A DNA stretch of 30,127 nt from Candidatus Neomicrothrix sp. (GTDB lineage: Bacteria > Actinomycetota > Acidimicrobiia > Acidimicrobiales > Acidimicrobilacustridaceae): NCBI GenBank assembly GCA_043740665.1, contig JAYUBX010000095.1, positions 1-30,127 on the forward strand, given 5' to 3'. Shown one piece after another: positions 21,988-29,562 of this stretch; the stretch's first letter is position 1; the number at the start of each line of letters is the position of its first letter. The position numbers and the translations under genes are program-made. The notes beneath the pieces were generated by a model. The model was not told the DNA's origin. It did no database searches and saw nothing but the letters and a program-made list of their open reading frames with translations.

Positions 21988-22446
21988 TCACGACGGGCTC
22001 GGATCGGGCTGCTCGGTGACGAATCGCTCGATGGCGAGCACGGCGACCCATCGGGGCACGTCGAAGTGGTCGGCCACCTCGGCGGCGTCGACCCCGCCGC
22101 CGTCCGCGGCGCGCTCGGCGATCAGGGCCCACAGCTCGGCCGACGGCACCAGACGCCGGGCGACCTCGCGATCGACCGCTCGTTCTTCGCGATCGACCAT
22201 GAGCAGCCAGGCCGGTGGCGCGTCGACTCGCTCGACGGCTCCGCCTCGCTCGTGGTGCACCAGTTCGTGGGTGAGCACCGCTCGCTGATCGACAGCAGGC
22301 ATCGTCGGGTCGACGACGATGACGGCGATTCCGTTGCGCCAGGCGTGGAAGCCGCCGCCCATCAACGCGGCGACCGGGTCAAGGGCGAGGATCAGGTCGT
22401 CCTGCTGCTCCGCCGCCCGCCACGGATCGAACCGTTCCTCGGTCAT
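21988..22446 (-). CDS. ImmA/IrrE-family HExxH metallopeptidase (putative anti-repressor)
   Basis: RAVLTHELVHHERG, EERAVDREVARRLVP, C-terminal HTH-like AEVADHFDV. TAGCGT 6 nt before ATG. Confidence 0.78.
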   Translation of the reverse strand: MTEERFDPWRAAEQQDDLILALDPVAALMGGGFHAWRNGIAVIVVDPTMPAVDQRAVLTHELVHHERGGAVERVDAPPAWLLMVDREERAVDREVARRLVPSAELWALIAERAADGGGVDAAEVADHFDVPRWVAVLAIERFVTEQPDPSPS

Positions 22447-22452
22447 GACCCA

Positions 22453-22458
22453 ACGCTA
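22453..22458 (-). promoter_or_regulatory. -10 element (TAGCGT) of a probable leaderless ImmA/IrrE-like transcript
   Basis: TANNNT 6 nt before ATG 22446. Confidence 0.55.
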
Positions 22459-22527
22459 CCGAGGGGGTAGGACACCGAGCAGGGTGCCGCACCGACCGTG
22501 GTCTCGATCGAACCGCGTGTATTTTGC

Positions 22528-22989
22528 TCAGGGTCGGTCGCGTCGATCGACCAGAGCCTCGAGGTAGCCCTCGAGCATGGCCTGTTCGAGATGGGTCAGC
22601 GTCAGGTATTTCCGGGCGAAGCCGGCGGGGAGCGAGGTGTCGCGTCCGTCAGGCGGCCCGCTGGCGCTGATGGGGTTGTCGCCCCGCGGCCGAGGGATCA
22701 GGATCGGGAGCGGCGGCGGGGGCGGCTTGAGTTGACTGCGGTCGACCAGCTCCGGCGGGTCGTCGCCGGCGAGGATGGTCGCGAACGCATCGATGGGCCA
22801 GCTGAAGGCCCGGCAGACGCCGCGCATGGTGAGTTCCTGATAGCGGTCTCGTCCGGCCGCCTCGACCAGCCGCCAGGTAGCCAGCGAAACGCCGGCGTGT
22901 TCGGCTGCTTCCTGCTGGGTCCAACCCAGGTGCAACCGCTGATTTCGGACCGCATGGCCCACTCGTTCCCAGGCGTCACTTGTCGTCAT
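22528..22989 (-). CDS. XRE-family HTH repressor (phage/ICE immunity-repressor-like), no S24 peptidase domain
   Basis: WERVGHAVRNQRLHLGWTQQEAAEHAGVSLATWRLVE, Pro-rich linker, short helical C-terminus. ATG 22989 preferred over 23052. Confidence 0.82.
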   Translation of the reverse strand: MTTSDAWERVGHAVRNQRLHLGWTQQEAAEHAGVSLATWRLVEAAGRDRYQELTMRGVCRAFSWPIDAFATILAGDDPPELVDRSQLKPPPPPLPILIPRPRGDNPISASGPPDGRDTSLPAGFARKYLTLTHLEQAMLEGYLEALVDRRDRP

Positions 22990-23140
22990 CTCACCAGTAT
23001 CGCGGAAATGATCAGCTATCGCTGGCTGGAGTGCTGGGGGAGGGGGATTCATGGGCTCAGGTGTACCACTCCGCCAGTCAGTAGCAAAGATGAAAATCTA
23101 CCCTTGACTACACGTATCTAGCTTTGCTTAGCTCTTGATC
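22990..23140. promoter_or_regulatory. Divergent promoter/operator region between the repressor and the Cro-like gene
   Basis: AT-rich 23080-23140. Rightward TTGACT 23104-23109, leftward TAGATT (23095-23100, minus strand), inverted AGCAAAG/CTTTGCT (23083-23089 and 23122-23128). Confidence 0.55.
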
Positions 23141-24028
23141 GTGCAACTGAATCGCCATGCCCTCCGGGTCATTCGTCAGCGGTCGGGTCTCACGGTTTCG
23201 GCGCTCGGTCGCCGCGCCGGGGTCAGCCAGCCTCACCTGTCCAACATCGAGCGCGGTCGGCGCCAGGCATCGCCCGAACTGATCGGTCGACTCGCCGCCG
23301 CCCTGCGCGTGCCGATCGTGGCCCTGCTGGCCGAGCTCGACCCCGATCCCGATCCCGAGCCTGATTCGCAACCCGATGGCGGGACCGTGCCCACCTTCTT
23401 CACCCCGGCCGGTCCGCCGCCGGGGTGGTCCTGTCGCCGACGCCGTCCTGGCTCGGCACAACAGCAAGGGAGACCCATGCAACGTTCAACCACACGTCCG
23501 ACCAGTCCACCGACCAGCGTGCAGATGCCCGGGGCGGCGACGCCGTCCGGCCGTTCGCATCGTGGGGTCGGGATGGCTGCGGCCGGCCTGCTGTCCGCCG
23601 GTGCCGTCCTCGCGGCCATGACCCCGGCTCAGGCCGAGACCTACTACACGGGCCAGTGCACCCAGAGCGCCAGCGTCATGGGTGAGACCTACTACCGGGT
23701 CTTCCAGGCCCGCGTCGTGGGTGGCGTCGAGTCGGGCACCGGCAAGTACGTCTGGGACCACTACGACTACAAGTACACCATCGACCTGCACCTCACGAGC
23801 GGTCCGTCGAGCAACGAGCAGGTCAGCTTCACGAGCGGGTACTCCGACGGGTTGTCCAACCCGTGGAACTCGCCCGACAGCCACGGCAGCAGCGGCGACT
23901 GGATCGGCGAAGGCAACTGGAAGGGCGCCAAGTCCTATTGGGGTTCCACCAAGGTGAAGTTCTACGTCGCCTTCGACATCCCCGGCACGCCCGACACCCA
24001 TTGCAACGCCTACACCGCGCTCGTCTGA
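23141..24028 (+). CDS. Cro-like XRE HTH protein reading in frame into the downstream secreted protein (fusion ORF)
   Basis: LRVIRQRSGLTVSALGRRAGVSQPHLSNIERGRRQASPELIGRLAAAL, then a DPDPDPEP linker and no in-frame stop until 24028. Start GTG 23141 or TTG 23135. Confidence 0.7.
   Translation: MQLNRHALRVIRQRSGLTVSALGRRAGVSQPHLSNIERGRRQASPELIGRLAAALRVPIVALLAELDPDPDPEPDSQPDGGTVPTFFTPAGPPPGWSCRRRRPGSAQQQGRPMQRSTTRPTSPPTSVQMPGAATPSGRSHRGVGMAAAGLLSAGAVLAAMTPAQAETYYTGQCTQSASVMGETYYRVFQARVVGGVESGTGKYVWDHYDYKYTIDLHLTSGPSSNEQVSFTSGYSDGLSNPWNSPDSHGSSGDWIGEGNWKGAKSYWGSTKVKFYVAFDIPGTPDTHCNAYTALV
23477..24028 (+). CDS. Secreted protein precursor (Sec-type signal ending AQA; 130-aa mature part with two Cys), function unknown
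   Basis: SD AAGGGAGA 23466-23473 before ATG 23477; h-region MAAAGLLSAGAVLAAM then TPAQA|ETYY; strongly C/G-ending codons in the mature part. Confidence 0.8.
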   Translation: MQRSTTRPTSPPTSVQMPGAATPSGRSHRGVGMAAAGLLSAGAVLAAMTPAQAETYYTGQCTQSASVMGETYYRVFQARVVGGVESGTGKYVWDHYDYKYTIDLHLTSGPSSNEQVSFTSGYSDGLSNPWNSPDSHGSSGDWIGEGNWKGAKSYWGSTKVKFYVAFDIPGTPDTHCNAYTALV

Positions 24029-24031
24029 GCC

Positions 24032-25234
24032 ATGACCGAGCCGTCCCGATCCCGGGTCGCAACCGCCCGATCCGCGGGCTCGTCGCCGCGGATCGGGCGG
24101 GTCGGCTTGCTCGCCTGGCTCGTCGTCCCCGTGCTGCTCCTGTCCGGCCTCACCCAGTGGCAGGTCCACCCGGTCGAACAAGGGTCATCCGGCGCGACCG
24201 ATCCGAGCGCCGATGTTGCGCCGCTGGCTCGGCTGTCGTTCGGCTCGGTCACTCGCGGTGGGGCCATCTTGTTCACGGTCGCGCAGCCCGTTCATCTGCG
24301 GTCGATGGCCGCCGACGGGTTGATGCAGTGGCAGCGTGACCTGACCGACGGCGACTATGTCACCTGCGGTCCCTGCCCGTCCGCAATCATCGCCCGACCC
24401 GACGGCCCACCGCGCACCGTCGCCGCTGACGGCACCGAAGGACCAGGTCCGGCTCTGCTCGGCGACCACCTGGTTGCGACGACGTCGTTGGTCGGCGTGG
24501 TGTTGGCGGCGGGCCGCACGGATGGTTCGGTCGATTTCTACTCGCCCACCAGCGCGGGCCTCGTTCTGGCTGGATCGGCGTCCGACGCCGGACTCGATCG
24601 GGTGCTGGTCGTGGTGACCGCCGCCGACCGGGGCGGTGCCGTCACCATCATGCGGACGTCGGCCGATCCGCTTCGACAAGGCGAGTTCGAAGTCGAGCAC
24701 GTGACCGCGACGGGCACCCACACCACGACGGTGCCGCTCGATGCCCCCGGGTCGCACCCGCGTCCGTGCGCGGTCGCCGACGCCGAGATCGTCGCCTACG
24801 TGCAACTCGACCCGGGCCCGACCGCCGACGGCACGACGCACGTGGTGGCCGACCGGGACGGCCATCGCCTGGTTGATGCGCGGGTACCGGGAACGTTCGA
24901 CTCGTGTGCGGTCGGGCCCGACGGGGCGGTGCTCAGCGCCACCGCCAATGGCGCCGACGGCGACCTGACCCGTACCCGGGTCGATGTGGCGTGGGTCGAC
25001 CTCGGGGGTCGAGTTCGGGCCACGGCCACCGAGCAGGTCGTGGCCACGTCGGCCTCGGTGGCACTCGACGCCGCCACCGGCCGGGTCGCCATCGCCGGCG
25101 GGCCGGGGCCGGCCGTGGTCGTCGATCCGTCCGGCCGCCACGAACGTCCCTCGGCTCTGGCCGTCGCCTTCGACGACACCGGCGGGATCTGGTGGGCCCA
25201 GTCCGAATCGCACGTCACCAGAGAGGACCCCTGA
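24032..25234 (+). CDS. Membrane-anchored or exported hypothetical protein, beta-rich (possible propeller)
   Basis: One hydrophobic segment (VGLLAWLVVPVLLLSGL), then a soluble beta-strand-rich domain with CGPC and two further Cys; 3 nt after the upstream stop. Confidence 0.7.
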   Translation: MTEPSRSRVATARSAGSSPRIGRVGLLAWLVVPVLLLSGLTQWQVHPVEQGSSGATDPSADVAPLARLSFGSVTRGGAILFTVAQPVHLRSMAADGLMQWQRDLTDGDYVTCGPCPSAIIARPDGPPRTVAADGTEGPGPALLGDHLVATTSLVGVVLAAGRTDGSVDFYSPTSAGLVLAGSASDAGLDRVLVVVTAADRGGAVTIMRTSADPLRQGEFEVEHVTATGTHTTTVPLDAPGSHPRPCAVADAEIVAYVQLDPGPTADGTTHVVADRDGHRLVDARVPGTFDSCAVGPDGAVLSATANGADGDLTRTRVDVAWVDLGGRVRATATEQVVATSASVALDAATGRVAIAGGPGPAVVVDPSGRHERPSALAVAFDDTGGIWWAQSESHVTREDP

Positions 25235-25235
25235 C

Positions 25236-25859
25236 ATGCCCCCCATGATCGAAATCGAAGCGCTCGCCATGGCATCCCGGCGTCGCCACATCGGCCCGTT
25301 CGCCCTGCAGGTCGAGGCGGGCGAGACGGTCGGGCTGGTCGGCCCCAACGGGTCGGGCAAGACCACCTGTATTCGTCTGACGCTCGGACTCGACCGATCC
25401 GATTGCGGCCGCAGCCGCATCCACGGTCGGGTCGTCTCCCCGTGGCAGCCGCCGACGGGCGTAGGCGTCGTGCTCGAAGCCGACGGCTGCTATCCGTGGT
25501 TGTCGGGACGCGAGAACCTGAGACTCTTCGCCCAGGTCCTGGGCCGGCCGGAGGTCGCGATCGATGCCGCCCTCGACCAGGTGGGGTTGACGCCCGCGGC
25601 CGACCAGACCGTGCGTCAGTATTCGCGTGGCATGCGTCAGCGGCTGGCGTTCGCCCGGGCGTCGCTCGGTGGTCCGTCGCTCTTCGTGCTGGACGAGCCG
25701 ACGGTCGCGCTCGATGGCGACGCCGGCAGCTGGCTGGTCGAGCTGCTCAACGCCCATGCCGGCGCGGGCGGGGCCACCTTGGTCGCCAGTCACGACGAGA
25801 CCTTTCTGCACGCGCTGGGGGCCCGCATCGTTGCCGTCGACGACGGGCGCTGCGGGTGA
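25236..25859 (+). CDS. ABC transporter ATP-binding protein
   Basis: GPNGSGKT, YSRGMRQ, FVLDEP, ASHD. Confidence 0.92.
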   Translation: MPPMIEIEALAMASRRRHIGPFALQVEAGETVGLVGPNGSGKTTCIRLTLGLDRSDCGRSRIHGRVVSPWQPPTGVGVVLEADGCYPWLSGRENLRLFAQVLGRPEVAIDAALDQVGLTPAADQTVRQYSRGMRQRLAFARASLGGPSLFVLDEPTVALDGDAGSWLVELLNAHAGAGGATLVASHDETFLHALGARIVAVDDGRCG

Positions 25860-27148
25860 TCGCGCTCGGGCTGGCCCGAGCCCAGCTGGCGCGCCCGACC
25901 GTGCGAGCCGTCGTGGTGGTGGTGGCGATGGCCGGTGCGTGGTTCGCTTGGTCACCCGGCACCCGATTCGGGCTGGCTGGCGCCTATGGCGGCTGGCTCT
26001 ACGCGTCGATCCGACTGCTCGACGTCGGCCTGGTGCCGTTGGCGGTCGTCGGTGCCCTGTGCGGGGCCACGCCACGTGATCGTCGGCTCGACGAGCAGCT
26101 GCGCGCCGCCGGCCTGGCACCGCACCAGGTGGCGAGAGCGGTCGTGGCCTCCGGCGCGCTGGTGGCGATCGCCGTCGCCGTCGGCTTCGTGGTGGGCGCG
26201 GCGGCGGGGGGTTGGCTCCGAGCCCTCATCGGCGGAGGGTCGTGGTGGGCCGGACCCGCCGCATCGGCGGGGGTTGCCACCGATGGGCTGCACGATGTCC
26301 GTTTGGTCATCGCCGTCGGCCTGGTCGGCGCCATCGGCGCCCTGCTGGGGTGGATCGTCCGACGTGACGACGCCGCCGTCGGCCTGGCGGTCGTGCTCGG
26401 TATCGGCTACCTGCCGGAAGCCTCGGCCGTCTTCGGTCGGCTGCCCGTGACCATCAATGGGTTGGCCTTCAGTCCGCTCGGCGCAGTGCGGGTGGCAACG
26501 CTCGGCGACCGAGGCCTGGCTGCGGCCGGCTACACGCGTCCGGCCACGGCGTGGCCGTTCGGGCTGGTGCTGGTGGGCTGGTGCGTCGTGCTCGTCGCCT
26601 TCGCTCTGCCCGGTCGTCGTCGAGCTCGGGTGGTCTCGCCGTCAGCATCCCGGTCGTCCCTCCCAGTCGCACGGATCGTCACGGTCGTGGTCGCGGTGAT
26701 GGCCACGGTGGGGTTCGGTTGGGTGATCCCAGGTCGGGCGGCCGACGCCTTGCCCTGGCGATGGCAGCGGTCATGGCGCCAGTCCGAGCAGGCCGGCTGG
26801 TCGTCTCCTCGGAGCGTTGACCGGTACCTGCAGGCATTGCGTTCCGACCCACCGGGTAACGTGAGCGAACTGCTGCTCACGACCGACGCAGTGAGCCCGG
26901 CGGTCGCCGGTTCGATCCCACGGGCGTCGCACGTCGAGCGGCAGTCAGTCGCCTCCATGGCCGCCCCGGATCACGTGGTGGTGCGGCTCGATTTCGCCGC
27001 GCCGATCGTGTCGGGGTCGACCGCGTTCTCGACCTACCTCGTGCGGTTCACCTTGCAGTCCGATGTCGACCAGCACTGGCACATCGTCGGCTCCGAAGGC
27101 CCGGTGGCGTCGACGCCGGCCGCGGCCGCCGGGTCGGGTGGTTCGTGA
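25856..27148 (+). CDS. ABC permease-like membrane protein with extra C-terminal soluble domain
   Basis: GTGA overlap with the ATPase; about seven TM segments followed by a ~140-aa hydrophilic domain. Confidence 0.72.
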   Translation: MIALGLARAQLARPTVRAVVVVVAMAGAWFAWSPGTRFGLAGAYGGWLYASIRLLDVGLVPLAVVGALCGATPRDRRLDEQLRAAGLAPHQVARAVVASGALVAIAVAVGFVVGAAAGGWLRALIGGGSWWAGPAASAGVATDGLHDVRLVIAVGLVGAIGALLGWIVRRDDAAVGLAVVLGIGYLPEASAVFGRLPVTINGLAFSPLGAVRVATLGDRGLAAAGYTRPATAWPFGLVLVGWCVVLVAFALPGRRRARVVSPSASRSSLPVARIVTVVVAVMATVGFGWVIPGRAADALPWRWQRSWRQSEQAGWSSPRSVDRYLQALRSDPPGNVSELLLTTDAVSPAVAGSIPRASHVERQSVASMAAPDHVVVRLDFAAPIVSGSTAFSTYLVRFTLQSDVDQHWHIVGSEGPVASTPAAAAGSGGS

Positions 27149-28017
27149 TGTCGACGCGTCCGGTCGAGCTCGATGAGCGTCCCCGGACCGCATCGGCGGT
27201 CGGCCCCGCGCCGTCGCTGGTGGCCTGCTCCCGCGCCCTGATCCCGGTCGTGGGCCGCACCCGTCGCTGGTCGGCCGCGGTGGTCGCGGCCTGGATCGTG
27301 GGCGCGGCGGCAGGCATCGCGCCCACCGCCTTCCAGGGTTATCGGGCCCCCGGCCTGGTGGCCTCGGCGATGTGGGGCCTGGTCGCCGTCGCCTTCCTCG
27401 CGCCGCTGGTGATCACGCCGATCGTGGCCACGGTGGTCTGCGACGACGACCACCATCAGGTCGCCTACGCCTGGCACGGGGTGGGCGTGAGTCCGGTTCG
27501 TCGGATGCTGGCCCGCACCGCCACCGCCGCTCGGTTGAGCCTGGGCTTGCTGCTGGTCGGGGCCGTCGCCGGCCTGGCCGCCGGGGTGGGCCTGGCCGCC
27601 TCCGGACGCGATCCGTTGGTGCTCGGCTGGTCGGGCGCACCAGGGGTGGTCGGACTCGCAGTCGGCGCGGCCGTGTTGCTGCTGGCCTGGGCGATCGGTG
27701 GACTGTTGGCGGCGGCGGCCGTCGACCCTGCCCGCGCCTTGCTGGCCCTGGTGCTGACCTGGTTGATCACCGGGGTGGTGGCCTCGCTGGTGCACTTCTC
27801 GCCCCATCTCGGGTTGGTGTTCCGGCTGACCCCATGGGCGGCGCTCTGGCCGTTCGACCCCGGGTCGTCGGACTCGGCCCAGTTCGCGGCCGCCATCCCG
27901 CCGGGGGCCCGCCTGGTCGGGGGCGCGGGGTGGCTGGTCATCCTGGCCGCCATCGCAGCCTGGCGCCGCCGCTCGACGCCCTACCCGAGCCCGGGCGAGC
28001 GCCGACGCCGCCACTGA
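27148..28017 (+). CDS. Second ABC permease-like membrane protein
   Basis: TGATG overlap; about six TM segments; FRLTPWAALWP loop typical of ABC-2-like permeases. Confidence 0.72.
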   Translation: MSTRPVELDERPRTASAVGPAPSLVACSRALIPVVGRTRRWSAAVVAAWIVGAAAGIAPTAFQGYRAPGLVASAMWGLVAVAFLAPLVITPIVATVVCDDDHHQVAYAWHGVGVSPVRRMLARTATAARLSLGLLLVGAVAGLAAGVGLAASGRDPLVLGWSGAPGVVGLAVGAAVLLLAWAIGGLLAAAAVDPARALLALVLTWLITGVVASLVHFSPHLGLVFRLTPWAALWPFDPGSSDSAQFAAAIPPGARLVGGAGWLVILAAIAAWRRRSTPYPSPGERRRRH

Positions 28018-28049
28018 TCCACCGACCTGATCCCCACGATCTGATCCAC
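28014..28049 (+). repeat. Three CTGATCC direct repeats at 13-14 bp spacing upstream of the GNAT
   Basis: Copies start at 28014, 28027 and 28041; copies 1 and 3 extend to CTGATCCAC. Confidence 0.7.
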
Positions 28050-28082
28050 GCGATATCCGTCCACGTTCGACAAGGAGCCACC

Positions 28083-28790
28083 ATGACCCAGGACGACACC
28101 AACCCGACTCGACTGGCCGACCCCCATCTCGCCGACCCCCATCTCGCCGACGACCCGGTCGAGGCCCCGCTCCAGTGCACCACCGGTCGCTGGATCAGCC
28201 TGCGCCCCGTGCGACCCGCTGACTATGACTTCATCCGGTCGGCCGAGCTGTCCGACGACCTCGGCCTGCGCTGGCGACACCGCGGGGCCACCCCGAGTCC
28301 CGAGGCCTTCGCTCACACGCTGTGGGCCGGCGTGCTCACCCAGTATCTGGTCGTGGCCAACGCCGATGACCGCGTGCTGGGCCTGGTCTGCGCCTACGAC
28401 GCCGATCTGCGGGCCGGTACCTGCTTCATCGGTTTCGCTCGGTTCGATCGCCGGGACCGCTCGCCGGGACTCGTCGAGGGCGTGCTGCTGCTGACCGACC
28501 ACCTCTTCACCCACTGGCCGTTTCGCAAGCTCTACGGCGAGAGCCTCGAGTTCAACCTGCCCGAGTTTGGGGCCGGGCTGGGCACGCTGCTGGTCGAGGA
28601 GGGTCGACTCCGCGAGCACATGTTCGCCGGTGGCCGCTACTGGGATCTCTGCTATCTCGCGCTCTATCGCGACACTTGGCTGACCCATCGAGACTGGCTG
28701 CTGCCTCGGATGCCGGTCGGCCATGGCGACGGTGAACCGACCGACCGCCCGACCCGGCTGTTCGTGTCGATCCCCACCCCCGCATCGTGA
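28083..28790 (+). CDS. GNAT-family (RimJ/RimL-like) acyltransferase
   Basis: ISLRPVRPADY, HLFTHWPFRKLY, EEGRLREH...GRYWD...LY. SD AAGGAG 28072-28077. Confidence 0.85.
   Translation: MTQDDTNPTRLADPHLADPHLADDPVEAPLQCTTGRWISLRPVRPADYDFIRSAELSDDLGLRWRHRGATPSPEAFAHTLWAGVLTQYLVVANADDRVLGLVCAYDADLRAGTCFIGFARFDRRDRSPGLVEGVLLLTDHLFTHWPFRKLYGESLEFNLPEFGAGLGTLLVEEGRLREHMFAGGRYWDLCYLALYRDTWLTHRDWLLPRMPVGHGDGEPTDRPTRLFVSIPTPAS
28116..28151 (+). repeat. 15-bp tandem repeat (x2.4) encoding ADPHL-ADPHL-AD in the GNAT N-terminus
   Basis: GCCGACCCCCATCTC at 28116 and 28131, plus GCCGAC. Confidence 0.9.
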
Positions 28791-29047
28791 CCGCCGTGCC
28801 CGACTTCGACGAGGTCGCCCGAGCCGTGGCTGATCGGCTCGGCCGATCGCTCTCCGACCTCACCCCCGACGCGCTGCTGGCCGCGGCGGTCTGTCGCGAC
28901 GCAACCGATCTGTACCAACTGCACCTGGTTCTCGACGGTTGGGTTCCCGGCTTCGAGCTGCCCGAGCAACTCGAGCGAGCCACGTTGGGTGATGCCCACT
29001 ACTACCTGGTCGCCCGCCTGGCCCAGATGGCGAGCGCGCCGACCTGA
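28787..29047 (+). CDS. Acyl-carrier-protein-like small protein with Ala at the expected phosphopantetheine Ser
   Basis: 86 aa, helical, acidic; ACP-like layout (FDEVARAVADRLG...LTPDALL...CRDATDLYQL...ATLGDAHYYL); GTGA-coupled to the GNAT. Confidence 0.55.
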   Translation: MTAVPDFDEVARAVADRLGRSLSDLTPDALLAAAVCRDATDLYQLHLVLDGWVPGFELPEQLERATLGDAHYYLVARLAQMASAPT

Positions 29048-29059
29048 CGAGCGCGCTGA

Positions 29060-29437
29060 CTAGCGCGTTTTGTCCAGGAACCGTTCGGCGTCGACGATCA
29101 CTCGGGTGACCCGGCCGACGGCGACCAGGCCTCGCTCATCGTTGACCGACACGGTGAAGGTGATGCGGCGGCCGGCGATCTTCTCGACGCAGGCCTCGGT
29201 CGTCACCGTGTGGCCAGTCGCGGTGGGGGCGAGGTGGTCGATCTGCACCTTGGTGCCCACCGTGGTCTCGCCCGGTTGCAGCTCGCCCTCGACGGCGACG
29301 AACGAGGCTTCCTCGCACAGGGCGATGACTCGGGGCGTGGCCAACACCGGTACCGAACCGGTGCGCATGGCGAGGGCTGTGTCGTCGTCGACGACGAGAT
29401 GATCGAGCGTGGCACTCAGGCCGGGTGTCACGGGCAC
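29060..29437 (-). CDS. FlK-type (fluoroacetyl-CoA thioesterase-like) hotdog thioesterase
   Basis: VLATPRVIALCEEA (Thr/Glu), TVGT.V.IDHLAPT (His). TATCGT 6 nt before GTG 29437. Confidence 0.88.
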   Translation of the reverse strand: MPVTPGLSATLDHLVVDDDTALAMRTGSVPVLATPRVIALCEEASFVAVEGELQPGETTVGTKVQIDHLAPTATGHTVTTEACVEKIAGRRITFTVSVNDERGLVAVGRVTRVIVDAERFLDKTR

Positions 29438-29562
29438 CGCGGTACGATAAGCAACCCGCTGCCTGTCCGGCCAATGCACCCGATTCGTCTGGCTTCGCGC
29501 CTGGGTCAGGGGCACACCGGTCGTCGGCTGGTTCGCTCGACCAACGCCAGAGAGGCCATCGC

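Follow-up and report, generated by a model that had tools for sequence, protein, structure and literature searches.

An in-frame fusion of a cro-like regulator and a secreted protein joins an XRE/M78-like gene pair to a rare candidate envelope cassette in Microthrixaceae

Introduction

Pairs of an XRE-family repressor and an M78-type metallopeptidase that govern chromosomal operons are already known, and switches of the ImmA type drive stress-induced operons; two of the peptidases, CapP and IrrE, comprise three domains, GAF among them. Single-pass transmembrane (TM) regulators with a helix-turn-helix (HTH) domain are a common class, BcrR is a membrane-bound XRE regulator (PMC10269533), and GNAT acyltransferases that take carrier-bound acyl groups and act on peptides or small molecules have been described (PMC8784127, PMC11685415). 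Here we report the gene content, folds, modular distribution, in-frame fusion and promoter elements of a locus in which relatives of all three kinds stand together, located at positions 21988-29047 of a 30,127-nt stretch of DNA from Candidatus Neomicrothrix sp. (GCA_043740665.1, contig JAYUBX010000095.1, forward strand; "the window" below denotes the whole stretch). The window corresponds to contig C95 in a metagenome-assembled genome that measures 3.08 Mb and is 87% complete, and the runs containing its sequence originate from sediment, glacier and soil metagenomes.

With moderate confidence, the locus is read as a lineage-specific composite of three modules on a Microthrixaceae chromosome: module A, a putative ImmR/ImmA-type switch of an XRE repressor and an M78 peptidase, divergent from a cro-like XRE gene; module B, a candidate envelope cassette of five genes, rare and conserved, with an ABC-2-type exporter and two extracytoplasmic beta proteins; and module C, a GNAT and carrier protein pair that would be a recurrent but dispensable add-on to B. 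The joining of A, B and C is restricted to this lineage, and each module also occurs alone. At the junction of A and B, the cro-like HTH and the secreted protein are fused in frame; the fusion is conserved, and the ancestral internal start of the secreted protein is kept within it.

Results

A regulator and a secretory precursor in one open reading frame

The open reading frame (ORF) at the A/B junction (23141..24028, + strand, 295 codons) contains no in-frame stop from GTG 23141 to the stop codon at 24026-24028, and thus the "Cro-like HTH" and "secreted protein" that had been predicted as two genes are one open frame. Along the + strand it encodes a cro-like XRE HTH (23141-23340; HTH_3/HTH_31, E about 1e-12), a variable low-complexity linker (23341-23476), a signal peptide ending in AQA (23477-23635) and a mature two-Cys beta-sandwich of immunoglobulin (Ig)-like type (23636-24025), with an internal Shine-Dalgarno (SD) sequence, AAGGGAG, at 23466-23472 and an internal ATG at 23477. 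The HTH spans residues 1-67 of the 295, the one hydrophobic segment residues 142-160 (144-162 if numbered from TTG 23135) and the beta domain residues 166-295. Judged from the sequence, the ORF has the architecture of a single-pass TM regulator, combining a domain for DNA binding with a lone TM segment and an extracytoplasmic domain.

Full-length fusions were found in 15 of 20 database homologues, with further cases at L031 and L044, and P0008, a seemingly "short" entry, owes its length to a gene call at the internal ATG, its contig carrying the fusion as well. Between the end of the HTH and the mature N-terminus lie 92 to 145 residues, in 14 distinct lengths, none of which breaks the frame or brings in a stop. 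Only one of about 18 informative sequences (L029) is unfused: its linker is frameshifted and its HTH terminates at a TGA in another frame, 31 nt short of the secreted gene, so that it appears to derive from a fused ancestor by a later frameshift. HTH and secreted gene also lie in different frames in three long-read assemblies (L013, L014, L019), which is attributed to indel errors because the same contigs break other genes; the short-read-type assemblies examined (SPAdes NODE, MEGAHIT k141 and JGI contigs) are all in frame except L029. The HTH-linker-secreted stretch of the window was recovered without indels in a contig from another run of the same study (X3, no differences) and in one from a different study (X5, 8 substitutions).

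The internal SD-ATG is conserved at the nucleotide level and is of the same type as the start of standalone homologues; since the secreted gene thus retains its own SD and ATG inside the ORF, two products are expected. The linker carries repeats of 3 and 6 nt (DPDPEP, TNTN, STST), and in part of it the GC content at third codon positions (GC3) falls to 0.57. AlphaFold2 modeled the secreted domain as an Ig-like sandwich (pLDDT 87). Assignment of a more specific fold was attempted with Foldseek against PDB, AFDB and the Atlas, and with a wide VIA search, and was rejected, the matches being generic Ig-like sandwiches only (ApaG, the MspA rim, MSCRAMM). Between congeners the domain is about 63% identical, compared with 62-63% for the ABC ATPase and 43-52% for the propeller and permeases described below. 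Six separate stretches of a 1606-aa protein (P0079) match part of the secreted domain, and the fold therefore also exists as a repeat in a giant protein.

A rare five-gene cassette

The secreted protein is followed on the + strand by four further genes of module B. The first (24032..25234) encodes a membrane-anchored, single-pass beta-propeller of 400 aa, for which the AlphaFold2 model (pLDDT 76) places a TM helix at residues 24-43 and is all-beta thereafter; Foldseek matched it to 8-bladed propellers, YxaL and BamB (E 3e-8 to 1e-5), and its look-alikes in the Atlas are PQQ_2/BamB-like. The second (25236..25859) is an ATP-binding cassette (ABC) ATPase of 207 aa (PF00005, E 3.5e-26), whose nearest NCBIfam models, CcmA, DrrA, NodI and lantibiotic-protection, all stay under their own cut-offs (98.9 bits against a cut-off of 309.75 for the lantibiotic-protection model TIGR03740). 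Permease 1 (25856..27148, 430 aa) has about 6+1 TM segments by hydropathy, which also indicates a C-terminal domain of ~135 aa that is probably extracellular; permease 2 (27145..28017, about 6 TM segments by hydropathy) has 290 aa if started at GTG 27145 or 289 aa if started at ATG 27148. Language-model look-alikes in the Atlas are ABC2_membrane_4 for both, at 0.82 for permease 1, which serves as a lead only, and at 0.95 for permease 2.

An exhaustive profile search with the mature secreted domain returned 21 representatives among 1.84 billion, and its distant homologues are standalone secreted proteins of 133-189 aa. Around them, every context that could be read, four in all and each with unrelated surroundings (L033/34, L035, L037/38, L046), showed the cassette in the same order: the secreted gene, a ~340-376-aa protein, an ABC ATPase of ~205 aa, and then permeases of ~380-427 and ~252 aa, in that order. 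By BLAST, the secreted proteins match at E 3e-23 to 6e-9, the ATPases at 50-51% identity and the propeller at E 1e-5, and permease 1 matches the L037 permease at E 6e-12 (BLASTP). A check for co-occurrence thus came out positive, the secreted, propeller and ABC genes occurring together far outside this lineage, and the four distant cassettes contain no HTH fusion, HTH, XRE or M78 gene.

Sampling of genomes gave the secreted domain in 5 of 61 Microthrixaceae, all within the genus of the window, in 1 of 400 Acidimicrobiia, and in 1 of 400 Actinomycetota as a weak match; the last (G189) was rejected as a member, the match not lying in a cassette. Over the Walker-A region of the ATPase (25292-25527), word depth rises 10- to 80-fold in four runs with many loose ends, and this spike is cross-mapping of ABC genes from other organisms, not a copy-number signal.

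The putative divergent switch and its control region

Module A is encoded on the - strand. Its peptidase gene (21988..22446, 152 aa) is read as that of a putative M78/ImmA-like Zn-metallopeptidase from a weak match to PF06114 (M78; E 7.6e-4, 19.7 bits, below the cut-off of 22), a match of residues 6-142 to PHROG 87 "metallo-protease" (E 2.4e-10), and an invariant motif: H60-E61-x-x-H64 (HELVH) and E88, 24 residues past the second His, are unchanged in 6 orthologues (alignment A7). The alignment ends ~50 residues beyond the catalytic Glu, giving a peptidase domain and a short helical tail. A profile of the peptidase family was compared with the PDB and matched nothing, including no IrrE or CapP chain, so that kinship with these could not be claimed by this route, and PADLOC models did not match either. 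Because 152 aa leave no room for it, the GAF domain is absent, and the DNA-damage induction that had been proposed from the likeness to such switches finds no support in a peptidase too short for the GAF domain of IrrE/CapP.

The repressor candidate, XRE_L (22528..23052, 174 aa; HTH_31, E 2.1e-6, above cut-off), consists of an HTH at residues 31-72, a Pro-rich linker and a short C-terminal region; on the same strand, 81 nt separate the end of its gene from the start of the peptidase gene downstream, and orthologues are present in every switch-bearing locus. Neither its start codon nor a leftward leaderless promoter could be fixed across orthologues, because Nanopore-derived relatives carry frameshifts.

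The divergent control region between XRE_L and the fusion (23053..23140) was analyzed by aligning 7 orthologous regions. A rightward -35 element, CTTGACT, at 23103-23109 is invariant in all seven, and a -10-like TTAGCT lies at 23128-23133, 7 nt before GTG 23141; a TTAGCT/TTAGGT element stands 6-7 nt from the HTH start codon in every region, and a leaderless mRNA is therefore predicted. At 23059-23068, the conserved sequence GGTGTACCAC may be a leftward -10 element or an operator. A scan for simple sigma-70 consensus promoters and a scan for terminators found nothing. Within the 5' coding part of XRE_L, at 23016-23031, the orthologues have a palindrome, AGCTATGGCTAGCT, of which the window has a degenerate form, AGCTATCGCTGGCT; conserved at the nucleotide level, it might serve as an operator in addition to coding for protein.

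A GNAT and an ACP-like partner

After a 65-nt gap, a gene with its own SD (AAGGAG) encodes a GNAT-fold acyltransferase of 235 aa (28083..28790, +). The sequence alone had no match in Pfam; a family profile of 27 homologues (A4) matched structures of SpeG, RimJ and AAC(6'), from E 6.5e-13 for SpeG to 1e-6, and PF13302 is recorded on several homologues, giving a RimJ/RimL/SpeG-like assignment. The 86-aa protein that follows (28787..29047, +) was identified as an acyl carrier protein (ACP)-like partner from alignment A3, in which it aligns with the phosphopantetheine (PP)-binding domain of a GNAT-fused homologue (P0057) and in which PF00550 matches 2 of 10 members (best E 2.7e-6). The original prediction of an ACP-like gene therefore stands as to kinship with a true PP-binding domain and falls short at the attachment site: carrier orthologues mostly read C-x-D-S-L-D-L-Y, whereas the window has D-A-T, with Ala at 28901-28903 in place of the Ser of the Asp-Ser-Leu motif, and its nearest relative (L026) has H-V-L. 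The Ala codon is without differences in the X3 and X5 contigs.

GNAT paralogues elsewhere are also adjoined by ACP-like partners, and GNAT and carrier are accordingly treated as a unit. The predicted linkage of this unit to the cassette is borne out at L033, where a GNAT-PP-binding fusion (P0081; PF00550 23.2 bits, above cut-off) follows permease 2, and fails elsewhere: the pair is missing from three cassettes, with none in L037 or L046, and is unlinked in G002. That genome carries a GNAT-ACP pair of 70% identity on a different contig (L015; G002:C4, 4801-5720), with Glu at the Ser position of the carrier and a frameshifted acyl-CoA dehydrogenase and a sulfotransferase as neighbors.

Two further observations concern this module. 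In the spacer between permease 2 and the GNAT (28014-28047), TGATCC(A/C)C occurs three times (28014, 28027, 28040), which may mark an internal regulatory site or a promoter of module C. At L032, the context of P0058, a Ser-less ACP-like domain is fused N-terminally to a GNAT, in surroundings with a trypsin-like protease gene, an extracytoplasmic function sigma factor with a putative anti-sigma gene, and transposases.

The locus and its distribution among relatives

Codon-position GC and the ORF listing give ten genes in 21988-29515. All genes of the original prediction are present where it had placed them, with two corrections (HTH and secreted protein share one frame; the carrier has Ala), and its six junctions were confirmed on re-reading: TGA-GCC-ATG, TGA-C-ATG, GTGA, GTGATG, the 65-nt gap and GTGA. 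The rightward series also remains a probable single operon, the genes being tightly packed with apparently one conserved leaderless promoter in front. On one side the locus is flanked by genes for DXP synthase, PAP2 and an alpha/beta hydrolase, and on the other by a convergent FlK thioesterase and TldD/PmbA.

As had been noted earlier, no integrase, relaxase or phage structural gene lies in the locus or its flanks, and neither a tRNA nor an Rfam match was found there. A mobile element or prophage was rejected, with no integrase or tRNA in the window, conserved flanks and no evident compositional break; a defense system was rejected as well, PADLOC matching only a generic HTH and ABC ATPase. 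Family searches in Pfam and NCBIfam left 5 proteins of the locus without any match, and Pfam, NCBIfam and PADLOC gave no named system for this gene set, in agreement with the first reading of the sequence.

The full block is conserved in at least 10 related genomes or contigs; the arrangement is complete in the window and in G001, G004, G006, G010, L019, L026, L030, L031 and L044, always between the hydrolase and FlK. One relative (G002) has XRE_L, fusion and cassette, with peptidase and GNAT/ACP missing at the locus. In two others (G003, G005) the peptidase, XRE_L and a stand-alone HTH beside FlK lie between the same flanking genes as the full locus, the HTH loci being L048 (G003:C5, 5158-5520) and L050 (G005:C7, 3139-3400). 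The tail of the G003 HTH protein resembles the start of a signal peptide, and this remnant indicates that the cassette was deleted there, cassette and GNAT/ACP having seemingly been lost in one event. A genome of another genus (G019) has neither switch nor cassette at the site. The locus is a single-copy chromosomal site with conserved synteny, and because the flanking genes are the same in every relative, vertical inheritance is indicated.

Within the genus, the orthologous GNAT is present in 6 of 6 genomes with the cassette and in 0 of 8 without it. This match is given no weight as independent evidence, since the genes are neighbors and went missing together in single deletions. The switch had been taken as an integral part of the system, a view that does not survive these distributions, with four cassette contexts lacking it, G002 lacking the M78 gene and G003 and G005 having the switch only.

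Discussion

We infer that the switch controls the operon, that both isoforms of the fused protein are made, and that the long form is a membrane-tethered or signal-peptidase-processed regulator. In this scheme one leaderless promoter would drive the entire rightward operon, and the leftward repressor would hold it down until the partner peptidase cuts the repressor on some signal. Starting at GTG 23141, translation would give the long isoform, with the signal peptide as membrane anchor, the HTH inside and the Ig-like domain outside, resembling a single-pass TM transcription regulator that signal peptidase may cut at AQA; starting at the internal SD-ATG (23477), it would give an ordinary secreted protein. 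The cassette probably exports or handles an envelope component, most likely an envelope or lipid-like substrate, and would not be a weapon. Because the organism is an uncultured member of the Microthrixaceae (cold sediments, soil, glaciers), such functional statements remain inference.

Several observations weigh against this account. No convincing operator repeats were found in 22960-23180, and the survival of the switch without the cassette means that it may have other targets. Since L029 has the genes unfused, the long isoform may be dispensable, and the low GC3 in the linker points to weak selection on its codons. The permeases match nothing in Pfam or NCBIfam, the structural neighbors of the secreted domain are uninformative (best VIA Z 7.4, Foldseek E above 0.008), and module C may not use a phosphopantetheine arm here, because the window carrier is without the Ser.

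The original prediction of a domesticated, DNA-damage-inducible antagonism module, with a bacteriocin-like secreted effector, possible acylation by GNAT/ACP and ABC export or immunity, now appears very unlikely. The arrangement of one ATPase with two ABC-2 permeases is a LanFEG-type layout, with a sub-threshold lantibiotic-protection match and ABC2_membrane_4 look-alikes, ImmA-type switches do drive stress-induced operons, and carrier-using GNAT acylators are known (PMC8784127, PMC11685415); against this, neither lactococcin 972 nor another bacteriocin family is matched, the secreted domain evolves as slowly as the ATPase at a vertically inherited, single-copy site with conserved chromosomal synteny, the peptidase is without a GAF sensor, there are cassettes with no switch, and three cassettes lack the GNAT. 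The ABC transporter is also not needed to export the secreted protein, because the protein's own signal peptide takes it through Sec. Self-protection of the BcrR/BcrAB or LanFEG kind, in which the tethered HTH-Ig protein would sense an envelope-active compound and induce the ABC exporter while the propeller and the free Ig domain act as LanI-like binders, is unlikely. It would account for a membrane-bound XRE regulator beside an ABC-2 exporter, as with BcrR (PMC10269533), for the F-E-G layout of the transporter, and for a sensor-like ectodomain in the autoregulated first gene of the operon. The models of resistance families all stay below their cut-offs, however, and the cassette is very rare in the sampled Actinomycetota and Acidimicrobiia genomes; because the cassettes of most lineages have no HTH, sensing is not its core role. 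BcrR, moreover, has four TM helices and no cleavable signal peptide.

Two further explanations, both quite unlikely in our estimate, would loosen the connections within the locus. The fusion might be without a function of its own, yielding a soluble HTH or degraded read-through while the product of the internal start is what matters, with the frame kept by slippage of codon-sized repeats; the low-complexity linker with its 3- and 6-nt repeats and partly low GC3, the fully intact internal SD-ATG, the unfused L029 and the HTH-only genes of G003 and G005 all fit this. The 14 spacer lengths with no frameshift or stop do not, since a stop codon would be an easy end for the HTH and is almost never used, with one unfused case among about 18 informative sequences that itself looks secondarily frameshifted. 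Alternatively, switch and cassette might be mere neighbors, the XRE/M78 pair acting on other targets as a relic phage module or in a toxin-antitoxin-like manner and leaving the operon unregulated: stand-alone XRE-COG2856 pairs are widespread, G003 and G005 retained the switch when the cassette was lost, and G002 has kept the cassette without the peptidase. Yet the cassette has no recognizable promoter other than the one that it shares with the divergent switch, 88 bp from XRE_L, and its first gene is physically joined to the cro-like gene of that switch.

The composite of three modules, with a switch-controlled operon and two isoforms, therefore remains our preferred reading. It resolves an apparent nine-gene "system" into three separable modules with the real links marked, and delimits the five-gene cassette as a conserved, very rare and unannotated unit. 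The fusion offers a tractable natural example of a TM regulator arising by stop-codon loss, in which one ORF has two starts and maybe different fates. A further step, which we consider speculative and rather unlikely, is that the long isoform is a secretory precursor carrying a transcription factor in an oversized signal peptide, that every round of export and cleavage by signal peptidase leaves a stub with the HTH, and that this stub can be released to regulate the operon. If this is true, the rate at which its first product is secreted would set transcription of the operon, with the internal start giving a factor-free protein, and the locus would record how a TM regulator was born when the stop codon between a phage-type switch and a new kind of ABC-dependent envelope machine was lost; the unfused, HTH-only and cassette-only natural variants would serve as controls.

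In its switch, the locus resembles ImmR/ImmA (ICEBs1, phage phi105), DdrO/IrrE (Deinococcus) and CapH/CapP (CBASS) in having an XRE gene directly upstream, on one strand, of a gene for an HExxH peptidase (putatively of M78 type in the window), and in the divergent, cro/xis-like first gene of the operon that the pair controls or, in the window, would control. With DdrO/IrrE and CapH/CapP it shares a chromosomal pair outside a mobile element. IrrE and CapP differ by their GAF domain; the window peptidase has 152 aa and a Pfam score below cut-off, and its pair persists without the operon.

The fusion is like ToxR, TcpP and CadC in its cytoplasmic HTH, one hydrophobic segment and extracytoplasmic domain with a Cys pair, and the next gene, encoding a single-pass protein with a large outside domain, recalls a bitopic partner of the ToxS/TcpH type. 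Like BcrR, it would control an adjacent ABC-2 exporter. Unlike in ToxR-type regulators, the membrane segment in the window is a cleavable signal peptide (AxA), still intact, that belongs to a gene found alone elsewhere.

The transporter is similar to LanFEG/BcrAB with LanI in combining one ATPase, two different six-TM permeases and a small extracellular beta protein, but it has no model above cut-off, an extra anchored propeller, and a seventh TM segment and C-terminal domain in permease 1; no lantibiotic or bacitracin gene lies near the window cassette. Lactococcin 972 with its ABC/7-TM immunity genes likewise sets a Sec-exported beta-rich protein beside an ABC transporter. Membership in that or another bacteriocin family was rejected for want of a family match (the lactococcin 972 models PF09683/TIGR01653 gave none at E up to 0.1), the accessory genes are different, and a slowly evolving gene at a conserved chromosomal site does not fit the pattern of a bacteriocin. 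Module C shares with acylases of selidamide/goadvionin-type peptides that are made ribosomally and modified post-translationally (RiPPs), SbzI and HlyC-type acyltransferases a GNAT fold that either has a PP-binding carrier encoded alongside it or is fused to one. It differs from carrier-dependent GNATs in the Ala at the attachment site of the carrier and in having SpeG/RimJ-type proteins as its nearest solved relatives, and no gene for a polyketide synthase, fatty acid synthase, nonribosomal peptide synthetase, RiPP precursor or phosphopantetheinyl transferase is present near the window GNAT.

The kinds of parts are thus known already, as single-pass HTH regulators and M78/XRE pairs, while the cassette is undescribed and the junction is a new variant: what is new here is a regulator fused to an intact secretory precursor that retains its own start.

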